This document shows positions 595-60,473 of a DNA stretch of 64,000 bases, piece by piece. This DNA is from an uncultured bacterium (GTDB taxonomy: Bacteria > Armatimonadota > Abditibacteriia > Abditibacteriales > Abditibacteriaceae). Made by a program: the position numbers and the translations under genes. How positions within the stretch are numbered: position 1 is the stretch's first letter; each line of letters begins with the position of its first letter. The notes beneath the pieces are model-generated. The model saw only the letters and a program-made list of their open reading frames with translations. It did no database searches and was not told the DNA's origin. Location of the stretch: the NCBI GenBank assembly GCA_963843795.1, contig CAWJLW010000006.1, positions 1,426,001 to 1,490,000 on the forward strand, written 5' to 3'.

Positions 595-622
595 AATGCC
601 CTGCAAGTACTTGCAGGGCATT
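595..622. repeat. 28-bp perfect palindrome centred on TGCAAGTACTTGCA
   Basis: AATGCCC-TGCAAGTACTTGCA-GGGCATT between the NmrA-like gene and dapA. Confidence 0.95.
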
Positions 623-670
623 GGATTGACATCGTTCTTCCTGCGGGCTGCCCGCATCATCAAATGAAAA

Positions 671-1525
671 TTAACTAAAAGCTGCTGCGTAATCGTGCGC
701 GAACTGTTGGAAGCTGCGCGGTGCGACACCCGTGACAGCTTCCACATCGGAAGTCACTTCCGCGCCCGCGTTCTGGCTCCACTGCTCATATTCGCCCAGC
801 AATCCATCCGCTGTCCATTCGGGAAAATGCACGCTTAACAAAATTGCGCGCATGGCGGCAGGCGGAATATCGATGTAGTGAATGGTGCGACCCAAAACCT
901 CCGAAAGCGTGTCTGCCATATCCGCGTGCGAGAGCGCCTGTGGGCCGGTGAGGTTGTAGGCCTTATTTTCGTGGCCCACTTGCGTGAAAGCGGCTAAGGC
1001 GACTTTGGCGATGTCGCGCACATCAATTACGCTCACGCGGCCTTCACCAATCGGCGCGTAAATCGCGTTTTGCGCTTTGATGGTCGGGGCGGAACTGAGC
1101 ATGGCTTGCATGAACAAGTTGGGCCGCAAAAAGGTGTATGTGATGCCAGAATTTTTGATGGCTGCTTCAACGATGCCATGATATTGCAAAAAGCGAGTGG
1201 GCGCATCGACATCGGCGCCCAACTGCGAAAGCTTAACGATGTGTTTGACACCAGATTTTTTGGCCTCGCGAACGAAATTGGTTTGCAATTCCGCTGCGTT
1301 TTGAAACGAGGGTGTCAGCAAAAAGGCTTTATCGATGCCCTGCAAAGCAGCGCGTAACGTTTCGGGCTGGTCGAAGTCGCCCGACACGATTTCGATGCCG
1401 GGTAATTTGATGGCGTCAGCTTTTGCAGGATGGCGCACCATCGCACGCGCCGAAATACCTTGTGCGACGAGCAATTTAATCAGTTCTGTGCCGTTGGTGC
1501 CGGTGGCACCGGTGATTAAAATCAT
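671..1525 (-). CDS. NmrA-like / atypical SDR NAD(P)H-binding oxidoreductase
   Basis: MILITGATGTNG Rossmann motif, LRPNLFMQ, IDVRDIA, YNLTGP. Confidence 0.85.
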   Translation of the reverse strand: MILITGATGTNGTELIKLLVAQGISARAMVRHPAKADAIKLPGIEIVSGDFDQPETLRAALQGIDKAFLLTPSFQNAAELQTNFVREAKKSGVKHIVKLSQLGADVDAPTRFLQYHGIVEAAIKNSGITYTFLRPNLFMQAMLSSAPTIKAQNAIYAPIGEGRVSVIDVRDIAKVALAAFTQVGHENKAYNLTGPQALSHADMADTLSEVLGRTIHYIDIPPAAMRAILLSVHFPEWTADGLLGEYEQWSQNAGAEVTSDVEAVTGVAPRSFQQFAHDYAAAFS

Positions 1526-1576
1526 CAGAGTTTCCTTGTTTGAAGCGGCAAGTACTTGCCGCGCGTATTTGCGACG

Positions 1577-2563
1577 TTATTCCGACCAAGTCAGAGCTTC
1601 GCTGGCTGCACCAGGCTGTTTCACCCACGCTTTACGGTCGCCTTTGCCGTCGTTGGCGATGCGCAAAATCGCTTCCGGCGGTTTTTCGTCCAAACGCGCC
1701 ACATAACGATATGAAGCTTGCGGCTTTTCCTGCGCGATGAGAGTCGCAATGGTCTTGATATCTTCAAGTGGCTGGCGCGAATTCAATTTCGCATATGTGC
1801 CCATATCGTTGTTCGGACGAGGTTTGGTGATATCGAACGAGGGTACGATCCACCACAGCGGCTTGTCCGGCCCGATTTTGCCTATCGCATCGCCCAGAAC
1901 ATTGGTTTCGCTGGGCGGTGGCACGACAGCGGGCGAAGCTATCTGCAACGTGCCATCAAGCGCGGGTTTCAGCGGTTTGGAAAGCAAATTCAACGAGGCT
2001 TCGTCCCAAGTCACTTTGGTTTCGGCCAACATAAACGGATGCAGCCAGATGCCGCCCTTGGGCGGCTCGATTTGAAAGCGCGAATTGCCAATCGGCTCGG
2101 CGGGCAATGCGGTCAATGTCAATTCTGGTTGCGGCCAAAACCAGCTGATGAAACCCTTGAAACCAGTGGCTTTGGCGCGACAGCGCGCGGTCAAAACCGA
2201 TTTCGCGGTCGGTTGCCAACGAAAATCATCAGCGGTTTTCTGCGTGGTGCCGTCGTGCCACAAAACGGTCCAGTTTTCAGATTCAGTTAGCAACACGCGA
2301 AAGGCGTTGCCCCGGCGCAGCAATACGGTCGAACCGGAACTGATGCGCTGTTCCATTTGTGGATTGGCCCAGCGCACGATTAAACCGGGTTGTTCGGGCG
2401 CGCTATCGCGTATCCAAACATAGCTGACTGTGCCCGCGATGAGCAGGAAAACTACGAGCCAGAACCAGCGATGCGAGCGCCGTTTGCGCTGGCGCGCCAC
2501 TGCCACACGCTGCTGAGAGCGCCCCACATACGCCAATCGTTCCGCATCGCGTCCGGTAATCAT
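1577..2563 (-). CDS. Hypothetical protein with N-terminal membrane anchor
   Basis: 328-aa ORF, basic stretch then one TM helix (WFWLVVFLLIAGTVSYVWI); co-oriented with neighbours. Confidence 0.7.
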   Translation of the reverse strand: MITGRDAERLAYVGRSQQRVAVARQRKRRSHRWFWLVVFLLIAGTVSYVWIRDSAPEQPGLIVRWANPQMEQRISSGSTVLLRRGNAFRVLLTESENWTVLWHDGTTQKTADDFRWQPTAKSVLTARCRAKATGFKGFISWFWPQPELTLTALPAEPIGNSRFQIEPPKGGIWLHPFMLAETKVTWDEASLNLLSKPLKPALDGTLQIASPAVVPPPSETNVLGDAIGKIGPDKPLWWIVPSFDITKPRPNNDMGTYAKLNSRQPLEDIKTIATLIAQEKPQASYRYVARLDEKPPEAILRIANDGKGDRKAWVKQPGAASEALTWSE

Positions 2564-2648
2564 AAATCAAATGTAAAAAAGAAGTGTGAAAACGCCTGCA
2601 AGTACTTGCAGCACACCCGAAGCCCGTTGCACTACTTTTGTTGTAGAT

Positions 2649-3728
2649 TTACTGAATAAATCCATCGCGTAACAGCATTTCAGCGACCAAAACTGCGCCG
2701 CGCGCCGCACCCATTTTTGTGTTGTGTGATACCAAAACCCATTTCACGCCGTGCGCGCTCAACACGGTTTCCTCGCGCACTCGACCGACAACCGTTGTCA
2801 TGCCATCGTTCATATCGCGGTCGCGGCGTGGCTGCGGACGAAACGGATCGTCGTGCACGAAAATCAATGGGTTGGGTGCCGAATGCAAACCTTGCAAGGC
2901 GCCATCGAACGAACGCATCGCTGCAATCGCGTCTTCGGGCAAGCAGGCTTTTTCAGTCGCCACAAAAACTGCTTCAGTGTGGCCGTCCAAAACGCCCACG
3001 CGTGTGCAAGTCGCCGAAACTCCGAACTGCGCGGGAACGATGCCATCATGGTTCAATGCGCCCAGAATTTTCTGCGTTTCTTTTTGGACTTTGGCTTCCT
3101 CGCCGGGAATGAATGGAATGACGTTCTCCATCGCGTCCAAACCCAAAACGCCGCCGCGTCGTCCCGCGCCGCTCATCGCTTGCAGCGAAGTTACTACAAC
3201 ACCTGAAATTCCAAACGCATCCTGAATCGGTTTCAATGTCATCGCCAGACCTGTGGTTGTGCAGTTGGGAATCGGTGTGACGAAACCTTGCCAGCCGCGC
3301 TCTTTTTGCTGGCGATGCAAAAGTGTCGCGTGGTCATTATTGACGCCAGGAATAATGATCGGCGTGTCATCGAAGTAGCGAAACGCCGAAGCGGTTGAAA
3401 TGACCGGCGTAGTTTGCGCATAACGTGGCTCGATTTCTTTGGCCGCATCGCTTTCCACTGCGGTGAACACTACATCGACGCTGCGCGCATCGAATTTCGC
3501 GCCATCAACCACGGGCATTTTGGCGAAATTAGCGGGCAAATCTTCCGCGCACCACCAGCCCAAGGCCCCTGATGGCTCCAAGAGCGCATCGTGATAGGTT
3601 TTGCCGGCGCTGCGTGGCGAGGCGGCGAGATGTGTGACTTCAAACTGCGGATGGTCGCGCAAAGCAGCAACAAACTGTTGTCCGGCGATGCCGGTTGCGC
3701 CAATGATGGCGGCTGTTTTCTTACTCAT
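2649..3728 (-). CDS. asd: Aspartate-semialdehyde dehydrogenase (archaeal/fungal-like subtype)
   Basis: GATGIAGQ, catalytic PNCTT, QAMSGAG, RVGVLDGH, PQPRRD, HNTKMGAA. Confidence 0.95.
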   Translation of the reverse strand: MSKKTAAIIGATGIAGQQFVAALRDHPQFEVTHLAASPRSAGKTYHDALLEPSGALGWWCAEDLPANFAKMPVVDGAKFDARSVDVVFTAVESDAAKEIEPRYAQTTPVISTASAFRYFDDTPIIIPGVNNDHATLLHRQQKERGWQGFVTPIPNCTTTGLAMTLKPIQDAFGISGVVVTSLQAMSGAGRRGGVLGLDAMENVIPFIPGEEAKVQKETQKILGALNHDGIVPAQFGVSATCTRVGVLDGHTEAVFVATEKACLPEDAIAAMRSFDGALQGLHSAPNPLIFVHDDPFRPQPRRDRDMNDGMTTVVGRVREETVLSAHGVKWVLVSHNTKMGAARGAVLVAEMLLRDGFIQ

Positions 3729-3744
3729 TCAATTCTCATTCAAT

Positions 3745-3772
3745 TATGCTCTGCAAGTACTTGCAGAGCATA
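3745..3772. repeat. 28-bp perfect palindrome around core
   Basis: TATGCTC-TGCAAGTACTTGCA-GAGCATA between dapB and asd. Confidence 0.95.
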
Positions 3773-3777
3773 TTTAT

Positions 3778-4599
3778 TCACAAAATATGTTCTAAACCAT
3801 AAGTCAAGCCCTGCAATTGCTGCACGGCTTTAATTGCACGCAACACGCCGGGCATGTAACATTCGCGCGTGATCGTATCGTGACGAATCGTCAGCGTTTG
3901 ACCGGCCATGCCCAGAATTACTTCCTGATGCGCCAGATAACCTGCCAAGCGCACGCTGTGAATTGGAATGCCACCGATTTCTCCGCCGCGCGCACCAATC
4001 GCCGAAGAACCTTCGGCTTCGCTATCGCCGCCGATGCGATTGAAATCTTCGCCGCGCGCTTCACGCATTACCAGCGCGGTTTTGAAAGCGGTGCCCGATG
4101 GCGCATCCAATTTTTTATCGTGGTGATATTCGATAATTTCTGCACTGGGAAACAATTTCGCGCATTCTGCAGCGAAACGCATCATTAAAACCGCTCCGAT
4201 GGCAAAGTTGGGCGCAATGAAAACCGGCACGTTTTTCTCGCGACTCAAAGCGTCAATCGCGGCGAGATCGTCTTCTTTTAAACCGGTCGTGCCCACAACT
4301 GGCGCGACGCCAGCATCAATCATAGTGCGCACATTCTGCATCACGCCCTGCGGTACGGAAAAATCGACCGCGATTTGCGCGCCGGAATTTTTCAGCGCGC
4401 TCACCAAATTTTCTTCGATGAAGACATTTTGTACCCCAACACCGGCAACCGTTCCGGCATCTTCACCGATTCTATCGCGCGCCACCGCGCCAACCAACTG
4501 CAAATCCGGGTCATTGACCACGGCGCGCACGACTTCGCTGCCCATGCGGCCCGAAGCGCCGCTTACAAGTACTTGTATCATTGGCTTTATTTTACCCAA
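3778..4599 (-). CDS. dapB: 4-hydroxy-tetrahydrodipicolinate reductase
   Basis: GASGRMG, VVGTTG, APNFAIG, EYHHDKKLDAPSGTA. Confidence 0.97.
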   Translation of the reverse strand: MGKIKPMIQVLVSGASGRMGSEVVRAVVNDPDLQLVGAVARDRIGEDAGTVAGVGVQNVFIEENLVSALKNSGAQIAVDFSVPQGVMQNVRTMIDAGVAPVVGTTGLKEDDLAAIDALSREKNVPVFIAPNFAIGAVLMMRFAAECAKLFPSAEIIEYHHDKKLDAPSGTAFKTALVMREARGEDFNRIGGDSEAEGSSAIGARGGEIGGIPIHSVRLAGYLAHQEVILGMAGQTLTIRHDTITRECYMPGVLRAIKAVQQLQGLTYGLEHIL

Positions 4600-5875
4600 C
4601 CTTTATTTCGAGTGCGGGTTTGTCATCTTCAAAAGGCCCGACCGCGACTACATTCATCAATTCATCGTTGAACATTTCTTGCGCCACATTCCGAATATCA
4701 GCGCGGGTGACACCTAAAATATCATCCAAAACGTCCTGCGTCGAGCGCTGATGTCCGTAATACCACTCGTTGCGCGCAATACGCCCCATTTGCGAAGACG
4801 AACTTTCCTCGGCCAGCAACAAATTGGCGCGCGACATTTGATTGGCGCGCGTCAATTCCTCCTCGGTCACGCCATCTTTTTTCACCGAGCGCAATTCTTT
4901 GGCGATGAGTTGTGCGGTTTCGTGCGCATTTTCCGGTGCGACGCTGGTCGCCACGCTCCAAAAACCGCCCCGCCGATACTGCGCCGAATTGGAGCCAATC
5001 GAATAGCACAAACCGCGCTTTTCACGGATTTCCTGAAACAAACGCGACGAATAGCCGCCAGTCAAAATCGTATCCAAGGTATAAGCTGCGAAGCGGCGAG
5101 GATCATCGTGCGCATAAGCGCGCGTTCCGGCACACAAATGCACCTGCTCGACATCGCGTGATTCTAAAGCCATTTGCGCGCTTACGGTGGGAATGCTCGG
5201 CATGCGATGCGCGCCGTTACTATTGTTGTCGCGTCCCGGCAAATTTTGTAATAGCTGCTGCGCTTGCTCGACAATTTTTTCGTGCTCGATATCGCCGACC
5301 GCAACCACCAGCGTGTGACGAGGCGCGTAATGCGTTTTCATAAAAGCGCGCAGGTCGTCTGGTGTGAAGCGCGACACCGTTTTTTCCTGTCCTGTAATCG
5401 GACGTCCCCAGCGCGAGCGCGGATAAATCGTCTGCGAAAACAGTTCGTCCGCAAGGTCTTCAGGCACATCATCTATCGAGCGAATTTCTTCGATAATGAC
5501 GCCTTTTTCCAATTCTAAATCTGCGGCATCTAAAATCGAAGAAGTTGCCAGTTCGCACAATAATTCGAGCGCAATCGGCGCGTGTTCGGACAGGGTTTTG
5601 GCGTGATAACAGACGAACTCACGGTCGGTGAAAGCGTTGGTCTGGCCGCCAATCGAATCCATTAATTCGGCAATTTGTGATGAAGTGCGTTGCTGCGTGC
5701 CCTTGAAAACCATGTGTTCGAGCAGATGCGCCAACCCGCTTTGGTTCTTGTTTTCATAGACCGCACCGGCTTCAAACCAGAGGCCAATAGTCGCGGAGTG
5801 AACGTGTGGATGATGTTCGGTGAGAACGCGCAAACCATCGGGCAAGACGGTTTTGCGAAAAGTAGAATCTTTCAT
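4592..5875 (-). CDS. M16 family (pitrilysin-like) zinc peptidase
   Basis: HLLEH inverted zinc motif, TNAFT, SRLFQEIREKRGLCY. Confidence 0.93.
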   Translation of the reverse strand: MKDSTFRKTVLPDGLRVLTEHHPHVHSATIGLWFEAGAVYENKNQSGLAHLLEHMVFKGTQQRTSSQIAELMDSIGGQTNAFTDREFVCYHAKTLSEHAPIALELLCELATSSILDAADLELEKGVIIEEIRSIDDVPEDLADELFSQTIYPRSRWGRPITGQEKTVSRFTPDDLRAFMKTHYAPRHTLVVAVGDIEHEKIVEQAQQLLQNLPGRDNNSNGAHRMPSIPTVSAQMALESRDVEQVHLCAGTRAYAHDDPRRFAAYTLDTILTGGYSSRLFQEIREKRGLCYSIGSNSAQYRRGGFWSVATSVAPENAHETAQLIAKELRSVKKDGVTEEELTRANQMSRANLLLAEESSSSQMGRIARNEWYYGHQRSTQDVLDDILGVTRADIRNVAQEMFNDELMNVVAVGPFEDDKPALEIKVG

Positions 5876-6007
5876 GGATTTAGGGAGACAAAATTAAACC
5901 GCCGAGAATGCTTAAAGATTTCTCGGCGGCAATTCAGTGTAACGCCCTCAATACTCACACGACATTCCGCAGCTAAATAGTGCTGCAAGTACTTGCAGCG
6001 CTGTTTT

Positions 6008-8200
6008 TCATGGCAACATGGGAATCGGTTCGCCGTATGCAATGCCGCGCCCGTTGGTGGCGACGAAAACGCGGCCATAAACGCGCGGATCGCCGATGAC
6101 CGCGCGACCAATCCAGCCGTAGCGATGCGCGTCGTCGTTGATACGCGTCCACGTCGCGCCGCTATCGTCCGAACGATAAACACCGTAAATCTCGTTGGCC
6201 TTGCCCGCGATGTAAAGTGCCGGATAATTTTTATCGGGAGCCGCTTTTCCAAAACCAATTGTATCTGTTGTTTGCACGCTGGTCACTTTTTGCCAGTTCG
6301 CGCCGCCATCCGTCGAATGCCACAAGCCCTCATCGCCCGCTGCTAACCACAAATCACCTTGGTGCTCGGGAACCGCGCGCAGGCGACGGGCAGTTTTGGG
6401 TAATGTTGCCTCGCGCGCTGTGAAGCTCGCACCGCCATCGGTGCTGAAGTATAGTTTTCCGGCTTTTCCATCGAGCGCATAAAACCCTTGCGGATTAACA
6501 CGATCCGCGACTACATCGCAATTGGCTTCCAAACCTTTGCAGCGCGTCCATGTAACGCCTTTGTCGCGGGAAAAATGGGCGAAATTATCGGGCGCGACCC
6601 ACACGAAACTCGCTCCATCGGCAGAAACCGCGACCGAACGCGAACGTGCATCGACATCGCGCGCGCTCGTGGGTTCGCTCGCAAACGGCGTCCACGAAAT
6701 TGCGCCATCGACTGAAACCGCGCCGCGCTTTTCGCCTTTGCCCGCGGTGCCTACGCGCACAACGATATTTGGATTTAATTCCGCGAAATCTAAGGCCGTG
6801 ACATTGTTCATCGTCGGGTTCGTCCACATTCCGCTTTGCGGAGAAGCACCCAAATCGTCGTGTCGAAAACCGCCGATGTCGCCCAGTCCGCTGATGAGGT
6901 GCGGTCCAGAAGGTGGGCTAATCAAATCAATCACGGCGGTTTCTTCGATGCCACGCGCGTGCACCGTCCAATGTGTGGGCTGATTCTGGTCGGCATTGAT
7001 CAAATCTTGCGTGCCCCAAATGGTTGCGCCCGTCACATACATCGCGTGATTGGAATTGAACGGGTCGATTTCGACATCGCCGATCCAGTGACCGAATTCG
7101 GCTTTATCGCGCCCCCACTTCAAAAACGGTGACAACGAACTATCGCGCTCGGCTAGCGCGCGCAGACCCGTCCAACTTTTTCCGCCATTGGTGCTGCGAA
7201 AAATATCGTCGCCTTTGCCCCAGCGATCCATCGTGGCCACCATCACAATATTCGGATTTTTCGCAGTCACCGCCAAACCTGCGTAGCCAAAATTTGTGTT
7301 ATCTCCGCCTGGCGCAATGGGTGTGATGTTCGTCCATTGATCGGTTTTGGTGTCGAGCTTCCAAACCGCGCCATCGCTCATGCCATTGGGTCCGGGTTTG
7401 TCGCCGTAGCTGAGATAAAGCGTGCCGTCGGCAGCTAAAACGCCATGATGTGGCAGCAAACCATTCGGCTGTCCGGGAACTTTTTGCCAACTTGTGCCGC
7501 CATCTTTGCTGCGATACAAATGTGTAGTTGGCGAAGCCACGCCCGCGTAAAGCGTTGGCGTTGGCGCGCCGATTTTGCCATCGCGCGCATCAAAAAAGAT
7601 AAAACCGACACCGATATTTTTGGTGTCGTCGGTGTTGGGGAACGTTGTCACTTGCTGCCAATTTGCACCGGAATCGGTGCTTTTCCACAAACCGTTGCTC
7701 CGCGTGCCTAGAAACAGAATGCGTCCGTCGTGCGGATCAACGACCAAGCGTTCGCCCATCGAACGTCCGTCCTCGTTGCCGCCCAACTTAAATGGTAAAT
7801 TGGTGCGCTGCCAGTTTTTACCCTGATCGCGCGAACGCAAAATCGCACCGTTGCCCGCCCAATCGTTGGTGTAAGTGCCTGCTGCCAGATAAACCACGTT
7901 GGCATCGGATGGATCGAGGCCGATGCTTTCGACGCCCAGTAAATTCCAATCGTCTGCGCTCACCCAATCTTGCAGCGCAATCCAGCGTTTTTGCACGCTG
8001 TCCCAGCGGTATGCACCACCGATATCGGTGCGACAATACATCAGATTTGGCTGTGTGGGATGAAACACGATGCCCGGTACGAAACCGCTGCCGACAATTT
8101 CGACCTGCCGCCAATTGTAAGCCTCAGCGGTCGCGGCGCAACCAATTCCGGTCACGAACCACAAACTCAGCAAAAGCGAGACGATAAATTTTAAACGCAT
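6008..8200 (-). CDS. GH74 xyloglucanase / endoglucanase, secreted
   Basis: Signal peptide from MRLKF; RTDIGGAYRWD, GIEET, LGDIGGF, BNR repeats (SxDGGxxW), ATNGRG. Confidence 0.93.
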   Translation of the reverse strand: MRLKFIVSLLLSLWFVTGIGCAATAEAYNWRQVEIVGSGFVPGIVFHPTQPNLMYCRTDIGGAYRWDSVQKRWIALQDWVSADDWNLLGVESIGLDPSDANVVYLAAGTYTNDWAGNGAILRSRDQGKNWQRTNLPFKLGGNEDGRSMGERLVVDPHDGRILFLGTRSNGLWKSTDSGANWQQVTTFPNTDDTKNIGVGFIFFDARDGKIGAPTPTLYAGVASPTTHLYRSKDGGTSWQKVPGQPNGLLPHHGVLAADGTLYLSYGDKPGPNGMSDGAVWKLDTKTDQWTNITPIAPGGDNTNFGYAGLAVTAKNPNIVMVATMDRWGKGDDIFRSTNGGKSWTGLRALAERDSSLSPFLKWGRDKAEFGHWIGDVEIDPFNSNHAMYVTGATIWGTQDLINADQNQPTHWTVHARGIEETAVIDLISPPSGPHLISGLGDIGGFRHDDLGASPQSGMWTNPTMNNVTALDFAELNPNIVVRVGTAGKGEKRGAVSVDGAISWTPFASEPTSARDVDARSRSVAVSADGASFVWVAPDNFAHFSRDKGVTWTRCKGLEANCDVVADRVNPQGFYALDGKAGKLYFSTDGGASFTAREATLPKTARRLRAVPEHQGDLWLAAGDEGLWHSTDGGANWQKVTSVQTTDTIGFGKAAPDKNYPALYIAGKANEIYGVYRSDDSGATWTRINDDAHRYGWIGRAVIGDPRVYGRVFVATNGRGIAYGEPIPMLP

Positions 8201-8220
8201 AGTTTTTCCTGTGGATAACA

Positions 8221-8252
8221 AAGCAGGCGCGCAAGTACTTGCGCGCCTGCTT
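8221..8252. repeat. 32-bp perfect palindrome around core
   Basis: AAGCAGGCGC-GCAAGTACTTGC-GCGCCTGCTT just upstream of the GH74 start. Confidence 0.95.
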
Positions 8253-8351
8253 CTCGGTTTTTAATGACAAAAACTGGGTTTTGGAATGTCTGTTTGGATT
8301 CTCGCGCTCGCGAAAAGTAACACAAAATGTATTGCAAGTACTTGCAACGCG

Positions 8352-9263
8352 TTATTCTCCTAAAACATCGACCAACCAGTTTGCCATGCGACTGCCCGCC
8401 AGCGCCAAACGCGTGTCGCAGAGAATTTTCATGTGACGAATATAATCCTGCGATGGTATTGCGCGCTGCGGTGTCGAAAACGCGAAATCGTCAGCCAGAA
8501 GATTGCTTTCGCGCGCCCACTCACTTGCCTTTAATTCGGGCTCAGCCACATTGGCTTCGCCCGATTTCTGTGCGAAATCCCGCACAATTTTCAAATCGGG
8601 ATGATCGGAAAACCCAGCGTCGTCAAGCATTTTTATGCGTCCATCGACGACATCGTAGCGATAACCAAAATCCCATAATTGATGCAAGCGCGCGTAAGTG
8701 GCGCCGCCATCGGGATCGTCTTTAGGCCGAAATGTCGCGGTTAAACCGGGCAGCGCACCGATGGGAAAATCGTTGCCGCCGCGATCTCGGTCGATGGCGT
8801 GCAATGGTTGGTGCAAATCGCCGATAACGTGAATCGCAATCGCCAGCCATTCGGCGCGCATTTTCGCGTCGGAATCGGACGAACGCAGCACGACACGCGC
8901 CATTTTCAAGGCGTCGAGCGCGTTGGTTGCTTCTATTGAGTCGGGATTGGCCTTGGCTTTGGCATCGACGTAATGCAGCGAACTGAGATTGTCGCGTTGA
9001 TGGCCTGCTTTCACATCATCCATCCAGCACGAAGCAGTCACGAAATCGTAAGGCCGCGCGGTAGCGTCGCTGCGAAAATCGGGCAGGGCACGCAACAATT
9101 CATCGGCTTTTTGGCGCGTTGCGACTGGTAAGTGATTGTAAGCGATTTGAGCGGAAATCATGTGGCCGCCCGCGTCCCACGCGCTGCAAGTACTTGCAGC
9201 AGCATTGAGCAGGAAAAATGAAGCGGCAAGTGCTTGCAATGGTTGGCGAATAAAATTGAGCAT
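8352..9263 (-). CDS. S1/P1 nuclease, secreted
   Basis: Signal peptide then WDAGGH; WMDD, HVIGDLHQPLH, DRGGN, LHQLWD zinc motifs. Confidence 0.9.
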   Translation of the reverse strand: MLNFIRQPLQALAASFFLLNAAASTCSAWDAGGHMISAQIAYNHLPVATRQKADELLRALPDFRSDATARPYDFVTASCWMDDVKAGHQRDNLSSLHYVDAKAKANPDSIEATNALDALKMARVVLRSSDSDAKMRAEWLAIAIHVIGDLHQPLHAIDRDRGGNDFPIGALPGLTATFRPKDDPDGGATYARLHQLWDFGYRYDVVDGRIKMLDDAGFSDHPDLKIVRDFAQKSGEANVAEPELKASEWARESNLLADDFAFSTPQRAIPSQDYIRHMKILCDTRLALAGSRMANWLVDVLGE

Positions 9264-52266: not shown

Positions 52267-52275
52267 TTTCCGAAT

Positions 52276-52677
52276 ATGAAACCGCATCTCAGCATGGTCA
52301 CACTGGGCGTTGCCGATTTGGAACGCGCGACAATTTTCTATCGTGATGGCTTGCATTTGCCGGTCGAAGGCAATTTCGATGGCGTGACATTTTTCAAGCT
52401 AAGCGGCGCTTGGATTTCCTTGTTTCCGCGCGGTGAATTGTTCAAAGATGCGAACGTAAATCCACCCGCAAGTACTTGCAACGCCGCTTTCACCCTGGCG
52501 CATAACGTGGCGAGCAGAGCAGAAGTCGATAGCGTTTTGCAGCAGGCCGCAGCGGCGGGTGCAACGATTCTCAAAGCGCCGCAAGACGCGTTTTGGGGAG
52601 GTTATCACGGTTTCTTCGCCGATTTGGATGGTTTCGTATGGGAAATTGCGTGGAATCCAGATTTGGATTTAACGTGA
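52276..52677 (+). CDS. VOC (glyoxalase-like) protein
   Basis: VTLGVADLERA, LAHNV, FWGGYHGFFADLDG..WEIAWNP. Confidence 0.9.
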   Translation: MKPHLSMVTLGVADLERATIFYRDGLHLPVEGNFDGVTFFKLSGAWISLFPRGELFKDANVNPPASTCNAAFTLAHNVASRAEVDSVLQQAAAAGATILKAPQDAFWGGYHGFFADLDGFVWEIAWNPDLDLT

Positions 52678-53775
52678 GTATTTCGAGCTTCCATTCGCGA
52701 CGCTGCGGAAAATTGCCAGCACGTGCGGCGCTTGCGTTTCCGCAGTGAATTCTTGCAAAACGGTTTCGTGACCGGCTTCACCAATTTGCTGGCGCAATTT
52801 TACATCGTCCAATAGCCGTGCAAGTACTTGCACCCATTCTTCGCCCGAAGCCAGAAAACCGTTTTCGCCATCGCGAATGATGTCGCGATTCACGCCGACT
52901 GGCGAACACACGGCGGGAATTCCGAGCGCCATATATTGCAGCGCCTTCATGGCACATTTGCCGCGCGTAAATGGCGCGTCGGGTAAAGGCATCAGGCCGA
53001 TGTCCAGAGCGCTCAAATCTTCGGCTTCACTACTGGCGCGCCAGCGCACATTTTCGATTTTTACGCCGGGCCATTGCCAATCGCACGGGCCGATGAAACG
53101 AAAGATGAAATCTTTCTGCTCGGCCAATTTCGCCAGCGCGGGGCCGATGGTTTCCAGATAAGCAATTGTTGTTGTGCTGCCGCTCCAACCGATGACCGGC
53201 GGGCCGCTTTTATCAGCGCGCGAAGCCGGGCCGAAGCGCTCATAATCGTAGGAACGGGTGTCAATTGTGGAAGGAATCACGCTGGTGTTGGCGTTGAACT
53301 GCTGTGCCCATTCTTGTAGATATTTGTTGCCGACCATGACGTGCGAAGCCAACCGGCAAATCTGCGCGACTTTTTGGGGCGATTTGAGCCAGCCCAGAGC
53401 CCGATTGGCTTCGCTGACGGCGGGCAGATAAATCGCGTCGTCGAAATCATAAACAATGGGAATGTTTTGACGCGCGATGAGGTTTTCCAGCCACGCCGGA
53501 CCGAGCAGCGCGGCTTCGCGATAAAGGTAAATCGCGTCGAATTCGCGCGCCAATCGCGGTAACTTCAAGCGCCGACCGGTCGCTTGCAATACTGCGCGCG
53601 CTTTGCGTCCGTATTGGCCGGGCTGATAAATGCGTTGGTTAAGATCGCGGTTTTCAAAGGGTACGAAAGTCATCTGAACGCCTTGAGCGCGCATGAGCGG
53701 TTCCCATTGTTCGATGCGATAGCGCTGTCCGGGCGAAATGTTATAAAGGTAGGGTACGATTGCGAGAATTTTCAT
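52669..53775 (-). CDS. GT4 glycosyltransferase
   Basis: MKILAIVPY, QRYRIEQ, YDFDDAI, GWSGS, KALQYMALGIP. Confidence 0.9.
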   Translation of the reverse strand: MKILAIVPYLYNISPGQRYRIEQWEPLMRAQGVQMTFVPFENRDLNQRIYQPGQYGRKARAVLQATGRRLKLPRLAREFDAIYLYREAALLGPAWLENLIARQNIPIVYDFDDAIYLPAVSEANRALGWLKSPQKVAQICRLASHVMVGNKYLQEWAQQFNANTSVIPSTIDTRSYDYERFGPASRADKSGPPVIGWSGSTTTIAYLETIGPALAKLAEQKDFIFRFIGPCDWQWPGVKIENVRWRASSEAEDLSALDIGLMPLPDAPFTRGKCAMKALQYMALGIPAVCSPVGVNRDIIRDGENGFLASGEEWVQVLARLLDDVKLRQQIGEAGHETVLQEFTAETQAPHVLAIFRSVANGSSKYSR

Positions 53776-53978
53776 GAGTTTAGGCGCTGTTTTCTCGCTG
53801 CAAGTACTTGCAGCAGTTCCGAGACGCGCAAAACATTTTAACGCGCGCTGTTGTAATGGGTATACTGCTTTCTCGCCACGAAATGCGTTGCCGCTACTTG
53901 CAGCGCTCACTGCTCGCCAAAGCGGGCGAAAAATGACGGGAGATTGAGCCGGTATTTGGGTGGAAGTTAGAGTTTGCG

Positions 53979-55118
53979 ATGCGGATTTTGCACGTTATTG
54001 AAACATTGGGCGCGGGCGGCGCGGAACGGGTTCTCATCAACCTGTTGCCGCGTTTGCAGGAGCGTGGGCACGCGTGCGAAGTCGCGTGTTTGTATCCGGT
54101 GTATTCGCTGCAATCCGACCTCGAAGATGCGGGCATTCGAGTGCATCGTATGCACAACCGATTGGAGCGGCGCTGGGACATTCTCACCGGAGCCGCACAA
54201 ATCATGCGTTTGCAGCGCCGTCGCCAATACGATATTTTGCACGCGCATCTGTTGTTCGCCGATATCTATGTCGGTGCCTCGCGATTATGGGGCCGACCTC
54301 CGTGTCGCACAGTAACGTTTCACTCCACTAATTTCAACCATTTTTACGGCTCGCCGACTGCGAGTATGGCGCGCTACCTACTTCCGCAACTTTTGCGCAG
54401 CGGTTTCGATAGCGTAACTGCGGTCAGCAAGCCGGTCGCCGAACATTTGCGCGAACATGTGCGCGGCGTCGAGCCGATTGTGATTCCCAATCCTCTCCCA
54501 CTTTCCATCGCACCCGACTCCAGCTTAGACCGCAACGAAGTTTTGCGACCTTATGGCGTGAAGCCCGAAGATTTCGCTATCGCGGTCGCTGCTCGCTTGA
54601 TTCCCGACAAGGCTCATCTGAAATTATTCGATGCGCTGCAAATGTTGCATGAAAAAGGTTGCCGTCCCAAAGTGCTGTTGGCCGGAGGCGGCCCGCTCGA
54701 AGGCGAACTGCGTAGCGCCGTGAAAACGCGCAAATTGCACGATCAGGTCGTGTTTTGTGGCTTGATGCAGCACGCACCCTTGATGCGTTTGGTGCAAGCC
54801 TGTGATTTATTTGTGCTGGCCTCAGTGCGCGAAGGTTTCGGACTCGCGCCCGCTGAAGCGATGTTGCTGGAACGCCCGGTTCTGGCTACCACAGCCGGTG
54901 GTTTAGTCGAAGTCATCGAAGATGGTTGCTCGGGCATGTTGGTGCCGCCCGGCGACGCCAAGGCCCTGGCACACGGCATCGAAAAATTGATGCATAATAC
55001 CGAATTGCGCGCGACTTTGGGACGCGAAGGACGCGAGCGCATCGTGAAAAACTTCGGTGCTGATGAAGTGGCGCGCCGCTGGGAAGAGCATTATCAAATG
55101 CTGATAGATCGTCGATAG
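53979..55118 (+). CDS. GT4 glycosyltransferase
   Basis: GGAERV, EGFGLAPAEAM. Confidence 0.92.
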   Translation: MRILHVIETLGAGGAERVLINLLPRLQERGHACEVACLYPVYSLQSDLEDAGIRVHRMHNRLERRWDILTGAAQIMRLQRRRQYDILHAHLLFADIYVGASRLWGRPPCRTVTFHSTNFNHFYGSPTASMARYLLPQLLRSGFDSVTAVSKPVAEHLREHVRGVEPIVIPNPLPLSIAPDSSLDRNEVLRPYGVKPEDFAIAVAARLIPDKAHLKLFDALQMLHEKGCRPKVLLAGGGPLEGELRSAVKTRKLHDQVVFCGLMQHAPLMRLVQACDLFVLASVREGFGLAPAEAMLLERPVLATTAGGLVEVIEDGCSGMLVPPGDAKALAHGIEKLMHNTELRATLGREGRERIVKNFGADEVARRWEEHYQMLIDRR

Positions 55119-55171
55119 CATAGCGGGAAGTTAATTGGCAAGATAGAAGTAGAAAGCAAACGCAAAAAATT

Positions 55172-57073
55172 ATGTGTGGGATTGTCGGGGTTCTTCAATT
55201 AGACGGCGCGCGGGCCGAGCGCTCGCAGGTGCAGCGTATGAACGACTGCATCGTGCATCGTGGGCCGGACGAGCAGGGCGTGTGGGTGCAAGGCCCCGTC
55301 GCCATTGCGATGCGTCGCCTCTCGATTATCGATCTGGCCAGCGGGCAGCAGCCGATGAGCAACGAAGACCAGAAAGTGTGGATCGTTTTCAACGGCGAAA
55401 TCTACAACTTCGCCGAACTGCGCGAACGTCTCATTGCTAAAGGCCACATTTTTCGCACGCATTCTGATACCGAAACCATCATTCATGCGTATGAAGAATG
55501 GGGCGAGGATTGTCCCAAGTACTTGCGTGGTATGTTCGCTTTCGCGATTTATGATGCGCGTCAGGGTGATGAAAATTACACCTTGTTTTTGGCGCGTGAT
55601 CGCGTCGGCAAAAAGCCGCTGCTTTATACGACTTCGGGCCGACAATTTATCTGGGGTTCGGAATTTCAAGCGATTTTAGCCAACTCGCAAGTCGCACGTC
55701 GTCCGTATTTCGCCGCCATCGATTCGTATCTGGCGACCAGTGCCGTGCCCGCGCCGATGACGGCGTATGAAGGTATTCACAAATTGCCGCCCGCGCATTC
55801 GCTGACGATTCATCAAGGCGAAATCAAGCTGCGCCGCTACTGGTCGCTCGACTTCACCAAGAAAATCAAAATTTCGGAAGAAGACGCTGCCGAGGAGCTG
55901 ATCGAGCGTTTAGACGAAGCCGTGCGCGTGCGCATGATTTCCGAAGTGCCCTTGGGCGCTTTTCTTTCCGGCGGCATCGATTCAAGCGCGATTGTCGCAA
56001 TGATGGCGCGCCACTCGACGCGACCTGTGAAAACGTTTTCTATCGGTTTCAAAGAAAAAAGCTATTCGGAAATTGAACACGCGCGCCGCATTGCGCGCCT
56101 TTACGGTACCGATCACACCGAAGTCATCGTTGAGCCTCACGCGATTGATATTTTGCCGCAGCTAGTGCGTCATTATGGCGAACCGTTCGCTGATTCCAGT
56201 GCGGTGCCGACGTTTTATGTTTCGCAAATTACGCGTCGTCATGTCACGGTGGCTCTGGCGGGCGATGGCGGAGACGAATTGTTCGCTGGCTACGAGCGTC
56301 ATCGCGCAATGAGCTTTACCGAAATGGTGCCACGCGGCTTGTTGCGCACCGCGTCGCGCATGAGCAATTATCTGCCCGATGGTGTCGATTTTCGTTCATT
56401 CAATGTGCGTTTGAAACGGATGTTACAAGCCGCTGCTCAAACGCGCTCGCAGCGTTATTTGCAGTGGATTAGTGCTTTTAGCGCGGCACAAAAACGCGAA
56501 CTTTACACGCGCGAATTTTGCGAATTATCAGGCTTTGGTCGCACTAAACAGCCAACCGAACAATGGCTCATTAACCATCGCAATTTGAACGTGATCGACG
56601 CGTGTTTGCTGACCGATACCAACACATATTTGCCCGATGACTTGCTGGTGAAAGTCGATATCACAAGCATGGCGAACAGTTTGGAAGTGCGCGCGCCGTT
56701 TTTGGACACGCCGCTGATGGAATGGGCAGCGACTCTGCCACCAAATTTGAAACTTAAAGGCAAAGTTTCGAAATATATCTTGCGCAAGGCCTTAGCTGAC
56801 AATAATTTGGTTCCGCGTGAAAATATGGAGCGCCCGAAAATGGGCTTTGGCGTGCCGATTCGCCACTGGTTCCACGATGCGATGAAAGCGCTTTTGTATG
56901 ACACTGTTTTGTCTGACCGCGCTTTCGCGCGCGGCTATTTCAAGCCGGACGCGGTGCGAAATTTAGTCAACGAACATTGGGAAGGCCGACAAGACCACGC
57001 GTATCGCTTGTGGGCGCTGCTGATGCTGGAATTGTGGCATCGCGAATTTATCGACAATTTTCCGTCGAAGTGA
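55172..57073 (+). CDS. asnB: Asparagine synthase (glutamine-hydrolysing) family amidotransferase, EPS-associated
   Basis: MCGIVG, HRGPD, RRLSIID, NGEIYN, LSGGIDSS, GDGGDE, EVRAPFLD. Confidence 0.93.
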   Translation: MCGIVGVLQLDGARAERSQVQRMNDCIVHRGPDEQGVWVQGPVAIAMRRLSIIDLASGQQPMSNEDQKVWIVFNGEIYNFAELRERLIAKGHIFRTHSDTETIIHAYEEWGEDCPKYLRGMFAFAIYDARQGDENYTLFLARDRVGKKPLLYTTSGRQFIWGSEFQAILANSQVARRPYFAAIDSYLATSAVPAPMTAYEGIHKLPPAHSLTIHQGEIKLRRYWSLDFTKKIKISEEDAAEELIERLDEAVRVRMISEVPLGAFLSGGIDSSAIVAMMARHSTRPVKTFSIGFKEKSYSEIEHARRIARLYGTDHTEVIVEPHAIDILPQLVRHYGEPFADSSAVPTFYVSQITRRHVTVALAGDGGDELFAGYERHRAMSFTEMVPRGLLRTASRMSNYLPDGVDFRSFNVRLKRMLQAAAQTRSQRYLQWISAFSAAQKRELYTREFCELSGFGRTKQPTEQWLINHRNLNVIDACLLTDTNTYLPDDLLVKVDITSMANSLEVRAPFLDTPLMEWAATLPPNLKLKGKVSKYILRKALADNNLVPRENMERPKMGFGVPIRHWFHDAMKALLYDTVLSDRAFARGYFKPDAVRNLVNEHWEGRQDHAYRLWALLMLELWHREFIDNFPSK

Positions 57074-57087
57074 AAAGAAAATGTCGT

Positions 57088-57119
57088 AAAACGCCCTGCA
57101 AGTACTTGCAGGGCATTTT
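57088..57119. repeat. Core palindrome with GCCC/GGGC arms
   Basis: AAAAC-GCCC-TGCAAGTACTTGCA-GGGC-ATTTT. Confidence 0.9.
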
Positions 57120-57147
57120 CTTGAAAAACCGAGTTTTTAAAAGCATT

Positions 57148-58381
57148 GTGAGTTCACCCAAAATCCCCCAATTGCCCTTTTCCGATCAACGCTTGCGCGT
57201 GATGCGATTGATCGCGCGTCTTAATATCGGCGGCCCGGCCATTCACACCACACTTTTGACCGAACGCTTGAATCCACAGCGATTTTCTTCGACTTTGGTG
57301 ACTGGCGTCGAAGCGGCCAACGAAGGCCACATGTGGGAATTGATGGGGCCGCGCGATTGGCAACCGATAATCGTGCCTTCGCTGGGGCGTGAAATTTCGC
57401 CGAAAAACGACATCAGCACGCTCCGCGAGGTTGTGCGTTTAATGCGCGCTCAACAGCCGCACATTGTGCATACGCACACGGCTAAAGCCGGCTTTGTCGG
57501 GCGTATGGCGGCGCGTTTGTGCCGTGTACCAATTGTGATTCACACGTTTCACGGCAATGTTTTCAACGGCTACTTTTCGCCGCGCAAAACAAAACTATTC
57601 ATCGGTGTCGAAAAAATGCTGGCTCGTAGGCACCGACCGCATCATCGTGCTGGGTGAGCAACAGAAAAACGAAATTCTACAACTGGGCATCGGGCGCGAA
57701 AAACAGTTTCGCATTGTGCCGCTGGGCTTGGATTTGAAGCCATTTTTGGAAGCCGAACAATGGCGCGGGCAGTTGAAAAGCGAATTGGGTCTCGCGCCCC
57801 AAACTCCTCTGGTTGGCATCGTAGCGCGTCTGGTTCCAATCAAAGCAATAGATATTTTTCTCAAGGCTGCCGCGCAAGTACTTGCAGCGCAACCAGATGC
57901 GCATTTTGTGATTGCGGGCGATGGCGATTTGCGCGCTGAACTGGAAAAATTATCGCAAACTTTAAAAATTCAACATCGCGTGCATTTTTTGGGTTTTCGT
58001 GCCGATTTGCCGCGCATCAACGCCGATTTAAGTTGCAAGGTTTTGTGTTCTTTGAACGAAGGTTTACCAGTCGCCGTCATCGAGGCGCTCGCTTCAGCGC
58101 GGCCTGTCGTGGCCACTGATGTAGGCAGCGTTAAAGATTTAGTAGTCAACGAAGATAGCGGCGTTTTGGTGCCATCGGGCGACGTTGATGCTCTGGCTCA
58201 GGGGATTTTGCGGGTTTTGGAAAAACCCGAACGCGCGGCGCAGTGGGGGAAAAATGGGCGTGAAAGAGTTTTTCCCGCACTAGATATCAGCCGTTTGGTG
58301 AGTGACATCGAAGCATTGTATTGGGAAGTGGCGCGTGAGAAAAATCTGCCGACCAAAAAAGAGCCATTGGTAAAATCATGA
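57148..58381 (+). pseudogene. GT4 glycosyltransferase with +1 frameshift near 57628
   Basis: IARLNIGGPA...HTAKAG...EKMLAR then a shift to GTDRIIVL...NEGLPVAVIEA; start uncertain. Confidence 0.8.
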
Positions 58382-58468
58382 GACGACGCGGCCTGAAAGT
58401 GCGATAATATCACGCGCACGACAAAATTTGAATTGTAAAAATGAATTGAAATTGAAAGGGGAACTGTT

Positions 58469-59413
58469 TTGGCCGGAAATGCTGTGGTTTTGGTGACAGG
58501 CGGCGCTGGTTTTATCGGCTCGCATCTGGTGCGCCGCTTGTTGAACGATAATTATTCGGTTCGTGTCTTGGATAATCTCGCGACCGGGAAGTTGGAAAAT
58601 CTCGCGCCAGTGCAAAATGACATCGAAATGATCAACGGCAGTATCGCCGATGAGGATGCCGTGTCGCGCGCCGTCAGCGGAGTTGATTTTATCCTGCATC
58701 AAGCGGCGATTCCATCCGTGCCACGCTCGGTGCGCGACCCGATTGGCTCCAATGAAATCAACGTCGATGGCACGTTGCTCCTGCTCAATGTAGCACGTCA
58801 GTCCGGTGTGCAGCGCGTGGTTTACGCTGCTTCCTCGAGCGCTTATGGTAACACACCAATTCTGCCCAAAGTGGAAACTATGCGCAGCGAACCTCTATCG
58901 CCCTATGCCGTAGCGAAGTTGGCGGGCGAAAATTACTGCCGCGCCTTTACTCACGTTTACGGGTTGGAAACCGTTGCCCTTCGATATTTCAATGTTTTCG
59001 GCCCGCGCCAAGACCCGATGTCGGAATACGCTGCGGTGATTCCCAAATTTATTTTGGCCTTGTTGAACAATCAGCCGATTACAATTCACGGCGACGGCGA
59101 ACAATCACGCGATTTTACTTACATCGACAATACGGTGGATGGCAATCTGCGCGCGATGAATTCGCCCAACGCCAGCGGCGAAATGATGAATCTGGCGTGC
59201 GGCGCGAGCTTTACGCTCAACGATTTGGTGCGCGAACTGGAAGCCATCACCGGTCGCAAGGCCAATGTGCAACATTTGGAGAAGCGCACCGGCGATGTGA
59301 AAGATTCGCTGGCCGATATCGACAAAGCGCGCCGCTTGCTCGATTACGAACCGCTGGTTTCGTTTCGGGAAGGTTTAGAGCGCACGGTCAAGTACTTTCA
59401 AGACACTATTTAA
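58469..59413 (+). CDS. NAD-dependent sugar epimerase (UDP-GlcNAc/Glc 4-epimerase-like)
   Basis: TGGAGFIGS, AASSS, YAVAK, LRYFNVFGPRQDP; TTG start. Confidence 0.9.
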   Translation: MAGNAVVLVTGGAGFIGSHLVRRLLNDNYSVRVLDNLATGKLENLAPVQNDIEMINGSIADEDAVSRAVSGVDFILHQAAIPSVPRSVRDPIGSNEINVDGTLLLLNVARQSGVQRVVYAASSSAYGNTPILPKVETMRSEPLSPYAVAKLAGENYCRAFTHVYGLETVALRYFNVFGPRQDPMSEYAAVIPKFILALLNNQPITIHGDGEQSRDFTYIDNTVDGNLRAMNSPNASGEMMNLACGASFTLNDLVRELEAITGRKANVQHLEKRTGDVKDSLADIDKARRLLDYEPLVSFREGLERTVKYFQDTI

Positions 59414-59442
59414 TAGTTATAGCTATAGAGGCGGAATATCAG

Positions 59443-60417
59443 TTGAAGATTCTCATTACGGGCGGCGCGGGCTTTATCGGCTCGCATTTATCGGAATTGT
59501 TGCTGCAAGACCCGGAAACTCAGGTCACTATCGTCGATTCTTTATCGACGGGCACCTATCACAACATTCAGCATCTCACTCACAACAGCAATTATCGCTT
59601 AATTGTTGCGCCAGTCACCGACACCAAAATTCTTGAACCCTTAGTCGAAGCCAGCGATCACGTTTATCATTTGGCTGCTGCCGTCGGCGTGCGTCGTATT
59701 ATCGAGCAGCCGGTCGAAACCATTGAAACCAACATTTTGGGCACCGAAGCCGTTCTCAGCCTGGCGGCTAAATATCACAAGAAAGTTTTGGTCGCTTCGA
59801 CTTCGGAAGTTTATGGCAAGAACTCTAACGTGCCTTTTAGCGAAGACGACGACAGCGTGTTCGGCGCGACCACCAAAAGCCGATGGAGCTACGCTTGCTC
59901 CAAAGCCATAGACGAATTTTTGGCCCTTGCCTATCACAAGGAAAAAGGTTTGCCGGTTGTTATCGTGCGCTTTTTCAATACGGTCGGCCCGCGCCAGACC
60001 GGTCGTTATGGCATGGTCATTCCCAATTTGGTTAAGCAGGCTTTACGAAACTTGCCGCTCACCGTTTTCGGCGATGGCCAGCAATCTCGCTGTTTCACTC
60101 ATGTCAAAGATTCCATTAAATGCCAGACGGCGCTGATGAACGAACCGCGTGCGATTGGACAAGTCTTTAATTTAGGTGCGAATCAGGAAGTTACCATTGA
60201 AGATCTCGCGCGCCGCATCATTGAAATGACCGGCTCCCATTCGCAGTTGCGCTATATGTCGTATGAGGAAGCCTATGAATCCGGCTTTGAAGATATGCGC
60301 CGCCGCGTGCCCGATACTACCAAAGTGCGCAATTTACTGGGATTCGCGCCTGACTCCAAACTCGACGATATTCTGCATGATGTCATCGAATATTTTCGCG
60401 CGCACCCCGAAATTTAA
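59443..60417 (+). CDS. NAD-dependent epimerase/dehydratase (UDP-GlcA decarboxylase-like)
   Basis: TTG start; TGGAGFIGS, STSEVYG, RWSYACSK, RFFNTVGPRQ. Confidence 0.88.
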   Translation: MKILITGGAGFIGSHLSELLLQDPETQVTIVDSLSTGTYHNIQHLTHNSNYRLIVAPVTDTKILEPLVEASDHVYHLAAAVGVRRIIEQPVETIETNILGTEAVLSLAAKYHKKVLVASTSEVYGKNSNVPFSEDDDSVFGATTKSRWSYACSKAIDEFLALAYHKEKGLPVVIVRFFNTVGPRQTGRYGMVIPNLVKQALRNLPLTVFGDGQQSRCFTHVKDSIKCQTALMNEPRAIGQVFNLGANQEVTIEDLARRIIEMTGSHSQLRYMSYEEAYESGFEDMRRRVPDTTKVRNLLGFAPDSKLDDILHDVIEYFRAHPEI

Positions 60418-60433
60418 AACCTTTGTGCGATTG

Positions 60434-60473
60434 AAAAATTCCTTTCTGCAAGTACTTGCAGAAAGGAATTTTT
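60434..60473. terminator. 40-bp perfect palindrome / terminator
   Basis: AAAAATTCCTTTC-TGCAAGTACTTGCA-GAAAGGAATTTTT after the EPS operon. Confidence 0.85.

Follow-up and report, generated by a model that had tools for sequence, protein, structure and literature searches.

Background

The palindrome HIP1, GCGATCGC, is hyper-abundant, recurs about once per 1-2 kb, has lineage alternates and is accompanied by an orphan methyltransferase (PMC4390886); methylated HIP1 raises transformation (10.1101/2024.09.10.611283). Uptake signal sequences (USS) and DNA uptake sequences (DUS) are present in thousands of copies at coding and non-coding sites, with matching peptides over-represented; they are absent from foreign genes and have been co-opted into terminators (PMC2817400; PMC3458573). 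In the USS, moreover, T-tracts in helical phase follow the core on its 3' side; there are only two, all on that one side (PMC3458573). The GTAG/CGTC repetitive extragenic palindromes (REP), with their REP-associated tyrosine transposase (RAYT), are short palindromes that number in the hundreds to thousands and occupy intergenic sites 3' of genes (PMC3733652). The element considered here is a 12-bp, self-complementary, GTAC-centred core, GCAAGTACTTGC, in a 64-kb stretch of an uncultured member of the Abditibacteriaceae (GCA_963843795.1, contig CAWJLW010000006.1, positions 1,426,001 to 1,490,000). This stretch is the window; the genome from which it comes (G000; 4.30 Mb, 11 contigs) is compared below with its relatives in a set of 27 Abditibacteriaceae genomes that includes it.

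Like HIP1, the core is a perfect palindrome that occurs about once per kb, has lineage alternates and is found alongside an orphan methyltransferase. It differs from HIP1 proper in sequence, phylum and length (12 bp), in being strongly intergenic and in being tied to terminators, and it has a phased-flank footprint, of which there is none in the cited passages of the HIP1 literature. With USS and DUS it has in common copy number, coding as well as non-coding sites, peptide bias, absence from islands, co-option into terminators and the company of competence genes; in contrast to them, it is self-complementary around GTAC and lies in the terminator loop rather than in both stem arms. The GTAG/CGTC REPs are similar in copy number and as short intergenic palindromes 3' of genes, but the core has neither a GTAG nor a CGTC tag, and its genic copies come mainly from substitution. 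As a signal the core is of one kind with HIP and the uptake sequences, and its two-sided footprint is unusual. No relevant report of the 12-mer, of palindromic repeats in Abditibacterium or of AGTACT excess in an Armatimonad was found in a literature search that covered few subscription journals.

Two propositions of different strength follow. Very probably the core is a signal read on duplex DNA, whoever its reader, and the long palindromic arms that surround some copies belong to host terminators. The more particular reading, which we favour tentatively and which falls a little short of being probable, takes the core to be a duplex-DNA site for a dimeric bending protein, likely a receptor for uptake or recombination of the organism's own DNA; the sites would have spread by substitution, and the arms would be terminators that the core has colonised.

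Distribution of the core

Genes (3451, 85% coding) were called with our own caller, and terminators likewise with our own scripts. The core is a hugely over-represented short motif: 2567 copies are dispersed through genes and spacers, and the 2563 classifiable sites comprise 747 that are coding, 1231 in co-directional, 293 in convergent and 268 in divergent gaps, and 24 others (71% non-genic). Spacing is even, with a mean of 1.58 kb, and about 65% of intergenic gaps of at least 40 bp hold a core, regardless of gap length. Coding cores avoid intergenic ones (31 lie within less than 200 bp, versus 78 expected) and fill long gaps (172 versus 91 expected at 1.5-3 kb). By the Rayleigh test (n=170, p 1.6e-8), cores less than 160 bp apart keep helical phase with one another. 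The two largest gaps between cores, the only ones inspected, are 26-kb stretches with transposase-like and type I restriction-modification-like genes, as befits an uptake sequence, which is missing from recently acquired DNA.

Within genes the core has arisen for the most part by substitution. When coding cores are aligned with orthologues, 35 of 45 alignments are free of gaps, signifying substitution without change of length, and in three of eight alignments with G001, which belongs to the same genus, that genome's own dialect of the motif occupies the same place. The imprint on the proteome is large: the peptide QVLA is found 560 times versus 38 expected (15-fold), and ASTC is 34-fold over-represented. 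The tetramer GATC is under-represented in the genome (observed/expected 0.47).

A transposase could have spread the core as the centre of a 32-bp REP or miniature inverted-repeat transposable element (MITE) family, AAAGCGCGCT-core-AGCGCGCTTT, whose copies later diverged: the non-genic share of sites, a loose arm consensus and the presence of a Y1 transposase speak for this. Its coding copies, however, mostly swap codons without altering length; the sole Y1 transposase is flanked by GTAG repeats of its own that are unrelated to the core, and G006, which carries the motif, has no Y1 match. The arm consensus is also the style of terminators in motif-free relatives, and conservation beyond ±17 bp is of A/T versus G/C, not of letters. 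Substitution in genes, the existence of dialects and a Y1 transposase with its own GTAG repeats set the core apart from REPs and MITEs, and this explanation is largely refuted, with very little probability left to it. The preliminary description of the window had already argued against a transposed family, and did so rightly: the 437 arms of at least 10 bp have 273 distinct 10-mers, and flank homology is confined to neighbouring cores and to small families. Its statement that the left arms are largely unrelated does not hold, for the arms have the loose consensus AGCGCGCTTT in common (exact in 45 of 437, with a median distance of 2). A RAYT/REP origin was rejected on the same distinct arms, on coding substitution and on the separate GTAG repeats of the Y1 gene. 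That gene, RAYT-like and apparently 5'-damaged, lies at C6:751650-752520 of this genome (L262:4650-5520) with its own GTAG REP pairs.

A phased footprint of about 130 bp

Averaged over the genome, G+C peaks at ±9.5, 20, 31, 41.5, 52 and 62 bp from the dyad, with A/T-rich stretches (dips in G+C) at ±15, 25.5, 36, 46.5 and 57; the phasing is a property of the site average, not of each single site. The best period is 10.4-10.55 bp on both flanks, and the signal is visible to about ±65. On contig C6, the AA/TT amplitude at 10.5 bp is 8.5 for 1632 intergenic and 5.9 for 643 coding cores, versus at most 1.6 for eight sets of control anchors, among them other GTAC sites and AA-N4-TT sites. The phase is identical at all three codon positions, with the signal strongest at the third, and phasing is present at divergent gaps and at short-armed sites; it therefore comes from neither terminators nor protein helices. 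Beyond ±17 bp, only the distinction between A/T and G/C is conserved. A look-alike flank exists elsewhere in the genome for 168 of the 2563 sites, mostly because a second core sits in the flank. The same phase is weakly present in five of five data sets from relatives (z 2.2-3.6).

A cosine with its peak at the dyad correlates with the flank phase (r 0.64-0.77), so that a single bend running through the dyad would fit. Nucleosomes show such a phase. Together with the saturating spacing, the phasing has the marks of a duplex-DNA site that would be read by a bending protein, with a benefit saturating at one to two kb. These marks are also what a nucleoid protein wrapping ~130 bp might leave, with sites selected as one wrap or plectoneme apex per gene boundary and no drive from uptake. 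About one site per intergenic gap, even spacing and close pairs in phase suit such a protein, as does the two-sided phasing itself, and a role of this kind has been proposed for HIP1 (PMC5861425). The search for the protein and the distribution of the motif weigh the other way. The histone fold PF00808 is found in none of the 27 genomes (a control was positive in three archaea; the search covered this one histone-fold family), G000 has one HU, and the number of ParB paralogues does not track the motif. Neither counted form of the motif marks 20 of the 27 genomes, and the dialect shifts within a genus. A structural role without uptake thus strikes us as unlikely, if still the most credible of the rivals.

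Gyrase was considered because its site is of like size and symmetry and because GTAC would lend itself to a staggered cut of 4 bases. As mapped by Topo-Seq, the motif of gyrase in E. coli is symmetric, spans ~130 bp, has G/C flank phasing of ~10.5 bp and a 4-bp centre (PMC6379681, table DS10). Symmetry, extent and the ~10.5-bp phasing of both flanks match; however, the phase is opposite when dyads are aligned (r -0.52 at zero shift), at none of the offsets between -16 and +16 does the E. coli matrix outscore random, and the gyrase motif is degenerate whereas the core is almost invariant. A gyrase cut site at GTAC was rejected, and these figures also count against gyrase as the nucleoid protein.

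Arms and terminators

The palindromic arms are self-complementary far beyond chance: a perfect arm that extends at least 10 bp from the 12-mer is found at 437 of 2563 core sites, versus 3.4 when half-sites are paired randomly. The preliminary description explained such arms by the core itself, which would nucleate fold-back or cruciform copying of one flank onto the other, so that hairpins grow from the core and become terminators later. Locus-specific, perfect arms are what this would yield, and symmetry that exceeds the T-run by at least 5 nt (60 of 349 long-armed sites versus 1.4 expected) bears out the copying of one flank onto the other. Three smaller observations lean the same way: among stems with a single mismatch, G-U (22) is not significantly favoured over A-C (14; p=0.24; 221 stems are perfect), coding cores have a small excess of arms of at least 5 bp (14 versus 3.2 of 559), much of it the consensus AGCGC, and some hairpin tips bear duplicated cores.

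The part assigned to the core as seed found no support. Arms of at least 10 bp flank 179 of 293 convergent and 227 of 1231 co-directional cores; at divergent sites (20 of 268) and at coding ones (6 of 747) they are scarce, and most cores outside terminators have short arms or none. At convergent sites the first 10 arm positions have no mismatch in 179 of 293 cases, one in 20 and two in 10. Long-armed sites peak 25-30 nt past stop codons and fit the prediction for an intrinsic terminator, a G/C-rich hairpin and a U-tract just past the stop.

For the first 1.8 Mb of contig C6, compact hairpins that lie 3' of genes were compared in perfection (no G-U pair, no bulge), compact meaning at most 2 unpaired positions, at most 2 G-U pairs and -15 kcal/mol or lower, with duplicates removed; this reduced the motif-bearing calls from 266 to 136 and the core-less ones from 105 to 47. 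Perfect hairpins number 82 among the 100 that have the exact core and 33 among the 47 compact core-less terminators (p=0.13); motif-free relatives have 29 of 44, built in the same style of AAAA, GC-rich stem and TTTT. An unfiltered first census had put perfect hairpins at 74% with and 43% without core, a gap exaggerated by loose random folds in the core-less group. Extension by at least 7 nt past the stem base is as frequent with the core (20/100) as without it (9/47; p=1). An E. coli terminator control gave 3 compact hairpins in 100 kb and is too small. A second method scored symmetry past the T-run: 58 of 292 hairpins with the core, 13 of 65 with a variant core, 12 of 102 core-less ones and 3 of 39 from motif-free relatives (1.09 Mb from twelve of them) have it, all far above the respective nulls of 1.0, 0.5, 0.8 and 0.1; the figure for the core is higher than for core-less hairpins, but not significantly so (p=0.07-0.08). 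Such symmetry falls where the terminator gains nothing obvious by it.

Since core-less and motif-free hairpins are about as perfect and also extend, the core as seed is not supported; arms no more perfect than those of core-less terminators are the very outcome that the preliminary description had named as refuting it. Many hairpins with a mutated or duplicated core at the tip retain perfect arms, cores that lie in an unrelated inverted-repeat family have left the spacers around them unsymmetrised, and neither the phased flanks nor the spacing is explained by growth from the core. Symmetric double mutants of the core number 0-4 per class, too rare for any excess to be seen. Seeding by the core is, in sum, quite improbable. 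Quasipalindrome correction by template switching is known to perfect imperfect inverted repeats (PMC7202029). It fits the symmetry past the T-run and is a general process, not specific to the core; the symmetry is likely its product, perhaps mildly raised by a zero-loop centre. A modest effect of the core on arm extension may perhaps exist. The long perfect arms are likely to be ordinary terminator hairpins that the core has colonised.

The order of events was also put the other way round in the preliminary description, with the core first, hairpins grown from it and their use as terminators last; comparison across genomes instead favours the hairpin before the core. Elements of a family-wide, unrelated inverted-repeat type have arms of tandem 9-bp units (CACAGAGAA or CGCAAAGAA type) and a variable spacer; examples are at C6 1381524, 2572354 and 3146646 of this genome and in L245, L298, L299, L292 and L294. 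The core is in the spacer of 15 of 21 hits in G000 and of 0 of 9 in G001, G002, G014 and G016. Because the core has been gained in these elements and perfect hairpins exist without it, the hairpin most likely preceded the core, a conclusion drawn from cross-genome comparison rather than from orthologous spacers: the same-genus genome is ~70-76% alike in genes, too distant for spacer alignment, and a metagenome scan for closer relatives gave at most 63% identity. One sequencing run contained the organism at low depth, and its listed contigs did not span long palindromes.

Terminators have in turn been fitted to the geometry of the core. Of 460 perfect-based hairpins with an A-run and a T-run, 357 have the core or a variant. 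The span from A-run to T-run is 24-28 nt in 90% of 271 single-core hairpins, with a mode of 26; among core-less hairpins 47% of 102 fall in that range (Levene p 5e-10, core versus core-less), and among motif-free ones 51% of 39. A span of 26 nt places A-run and T-run at the first phased tract, and phasing persists outside core-bearing but not outside core-less hairpins (+3.5 versus -2.2). As RNA, the core provides four more stem pairs and a GUAC loop.

Several neighbouring observations concern hairpins and their repair. On contig C6, 18 pairs of cores lie 12-13 bp apart at hairpin tips, head to tail or overlapping (for example at 373256, 759262 and 2705928); such double cores are a possible route between dialects. 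The genome has both sbcD and an sbcC-like gene, the pair that the preliminary description had singled out. Directly upstream of them (C6:2199186-2206812; L263:1186-8812) are two genes of 375 and 620 aa, neither with a Pfam or NCBIfam match, in a layout that we take to resemble nurA-herA-mre11-rad50 operons. Four perfect palindromes of 28-58 bp, centred on TATATATA, cluster at C4:10126-10330, a low-motif region. The longest arms noted among relatives are those of a motif-free inverted repeat in G009 (L224:2778-2904), perfect over 58 bp with a 10-nt loop.

Dialects and the orphan methyltransferase

Abditibacteriaceae supply the best named homologues both of Asd from the window and of the methyltransferase discussed below, and a contig of a close relative encodes an Asd (P0001) that is 95% identical. 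In 40 relatives the exact 12-mer has 0-3 copies; a 14-mer gives mostly single chance matches among those listed for the collection, and five of these genomes, examined further, hold 1-3 copies. DUS come in lineage dialects, and so does this motif: G001 has CAAAGTACTTTG, G009, G012, G015 and G019 have a CGAGTACTCG-type centre, and G006 has GTACGGTCGA-NN-TCGACCGTAC, two GTAC half-sites around a short palindrome; the dialects of all six relatives are GTAC-based. AGTACT occurs 2813-4733 times per genome in six genomes and GTACGGTCGA ~3000 times in G006, making 7 carriers among the 27 genomes of the family; the other 20 hold 1-285 AGTACT. Elsewhere in the phylum, 145 genomes sampled from its other families show no excess of AGTACT, and families f11 and f34 have very few (0-45).

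Across the family GTAC is nearly purged or concentrated in one context. In the motif-free relatives G008, G013, G014 and G016, both GTAC and CTAG are nearly purged from core DNA (L245-L256, L292-L311); there is one GTAC in 160 kb of G014, and one AGTACT in the whole 6-Mb genome of G005. The latter has a single G006-type element (L254:11973-11996, contig C273) and is otherwise without such elements, so either transfer or binning contamination accounts for it. Two inverted DUS-like words in an assembly of Neisseria form the same 12-mer between them (L079:290-325), probably incidentally.

An orphan beta-class adenine methyltransferase with the motif DPPY, of N6_N4 type, is encoded at C6:2517364-2518135 (L261:6365-7135). 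It is found in 22 of the 27 genomes, including all seven motif carriers, conserved at 57-75% in changing neighbourhoods and broken in G013 and G022. Within genus g2, the eight genomes that have the gene, if only as a remnant, contain 0.2-5.9 AGTACT per Mb, and the five that lack it 6.0-26; these genomes are kin, hence not independent, and the depletion hints at a methyltransferase target that would contain GTAC. PDB matches include M.RsrI, 8urk and 9c3u, of which the latter two are presumably the Burkholderia GTWWAC enzyme. No close orthologue outside the family was found in five AGTACT-poor and five ordinary genomes (best E ~1e-20), and the methyltransferase tree is too poorly resolved for the dialects to be mapped onto it.

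A conserved orphan methyltransferase, GTAC purged or confined to one context and the presence of MutS could also point to a HIP1-like by-product of repair, an Elhai ratchet in which methylated GTAC in a preferred context would be recognised by a repair factor and mutations toward the motif would be fixed up to ~1/kb; saturating spacing is what that model predicts (PMC4390886). Its machinery is the difficulty: MutH matches none of the seven motif genomes (4 of 27 overall, all motif-free). The GTAC glycosylase R.PabI (PF09522) matches none of the 27 either, but in a search whose control also matched nowhere, which decides nothing. A/T phasing to ±65 bp and a 71% intergenic share are not readily explained by mutation and repair, and we regard this account as improbable.

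The palindromes of the window

The window contains 44 exact cores (595..62780), about one per 1.5 kb, of which 12 have no arm at all. Its ten zero-loop palindromes were checked for start, length and arms and agree in all three with the preliminary description; every one is centred on the core, and together they are the tail of the arm-length distribution. Rfam has no match within the window.

The longest, of 58 bp at 11690..11747, is a predicted bidirectional terminator between convergent genes (-43.7 kcal/mol, z -10.4). Its arms contain the mirror-image TAA stop codons of both genes, 18 nt from the core, and its symmetry exceeds the T-tract; symmetric stop codons like these are also found at C6:1009328, 1987589 and 511327. 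The 38-bp palindrome at 22564..22601 is the predicted plus-strand terminator of groEL (20900-22534), and that of 40 bp at 60434..60473, 30 nt past the end of a gene, is also a predicted terminator on the plus strand. Two palindromes are of 28 bp: that at 595..622, with the core at the hairpin tip, lies 56 nt 3' of a minus-strand gene that ends at 671, and that at 3745..3772 lies in the spacer between dapB and asd, both on the minus strand. Those at 8221..8252 (32 bp) and 47007..47036 (30 bp) are in gaps between co-directional genes, and the other 30-bp palindrome (19460..19489) has an arm near the consensus AGCGCGCTTT. The 32-bp palindrome at 31019..31050 is directly 3' of an EmrB-family gene, with a second core 39 bp away, at 30985-31006, or about four helical turns. 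The 32-bp palindrome at 39428..39459 lies in a gap between genes that our calls make divergent, and for that reason is no obvious terminator. On the minus strand, four coding cores (27704, 27731, 28240 and 29084, within 27704..29095) are read in frame as Q-V-L-A; their arms measure 0-3 bp, and they exemplify the 747 coding copies. Elsewhere on contig C6, at 3512715-3512750, the palindrome TGTTTCACGTGAAACA has extended perfect arms and adjoins parB and the GC-skew minimum; we take it to be parS-like, and it likely marks the origin region.

Discussion

A drive from uptake or recombination is favoured because substitution in genes, a biased proteome, islands free of the motif, dialects, phased T-tracts and co-option into terminators together make up the USS/DUS syndrome, and because methylated HIP1 raises transformation. 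In the scheme that we propose on these grounds, a protein would read the core and its bend on duplex DNA, and biased uptake and recombination would fix sites where they are cheapest: in intergenic gaps, in terminator loops and in Q-V-L-A codons. A terminator would be an ideal host, because the core adds four stem pairs and a GUAC loop to the hairpin while its A-run and T-run supply the tracts at ±15 when 26 nt apart. Generic template switching would then keep the hairpins perfect and lengthen them past the T-run, and the orphan adenine methyltransferase of the family may methylate GTAC and so gate the signal. Methylation-gated uptake is known in Campylobacter.

A number of facts weigh against this reading. 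No reader protein is found among the candidates examined; G000 has ComEC, ComEA and secretins, but these do not discriminate, since they are present in tested genomes with and without the motif. We know of no uptake sequence of the USS or DUS type that is a palindrome, and, unlike that of the one-sided USS, the phasing here is two-sided and extends over about five turns, an arrangement that would suit a chromosomal wrap as well. In relatives the phasing is weak (amplitude 1.5-3.9 versus 7.2). The methyltransferase, whose target is putative, is also present in 15 motif-free genomes, and its nearest characterised relatives are just 33-36% identical to it; several relatives of G000 show a depletion of CTAG as strong as that of GTAC, and G016, which lacks the gene, has only 7 GTAC in 140 kb. 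Extension by at least 7 nt past the stem base is more frequent with the core (20/100) than in motif-free relatives (2/44; p=0.02), and the gene and terminator calls rest on our own scripts.

Taken to its full extent, the favoured reading would make the core a methylation-gated palindromic identity tag in two genera of the Abditibacteriaceae, with a dimeric reader of GTAC-centred dialects and a nucleosome-like wrap of ~130 bp, in cells where no histone has been detected. It might then be a third independent system for uptake of self DNA, or a sequence-positioned chromatin particle at most gene boundaries, which would have remodelled terminators and thousands of codons. We consider this extended form possible but doubtful.

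The signal as such is now separated from the perfection that is generic to terminator hairpins, two things that the preliminary description had merged. What generates palindromes as highly iterated as HIP1, and what recognises them, has long been debated, and few lineages are established cases of sequence-specific DNA uptake. The measurable 130-bp footprint tells a biochemist which probe to use, and the family is a natural experiment, with four different dialects, some genomes purged of GTAC and one orphan methyltransferase in most.

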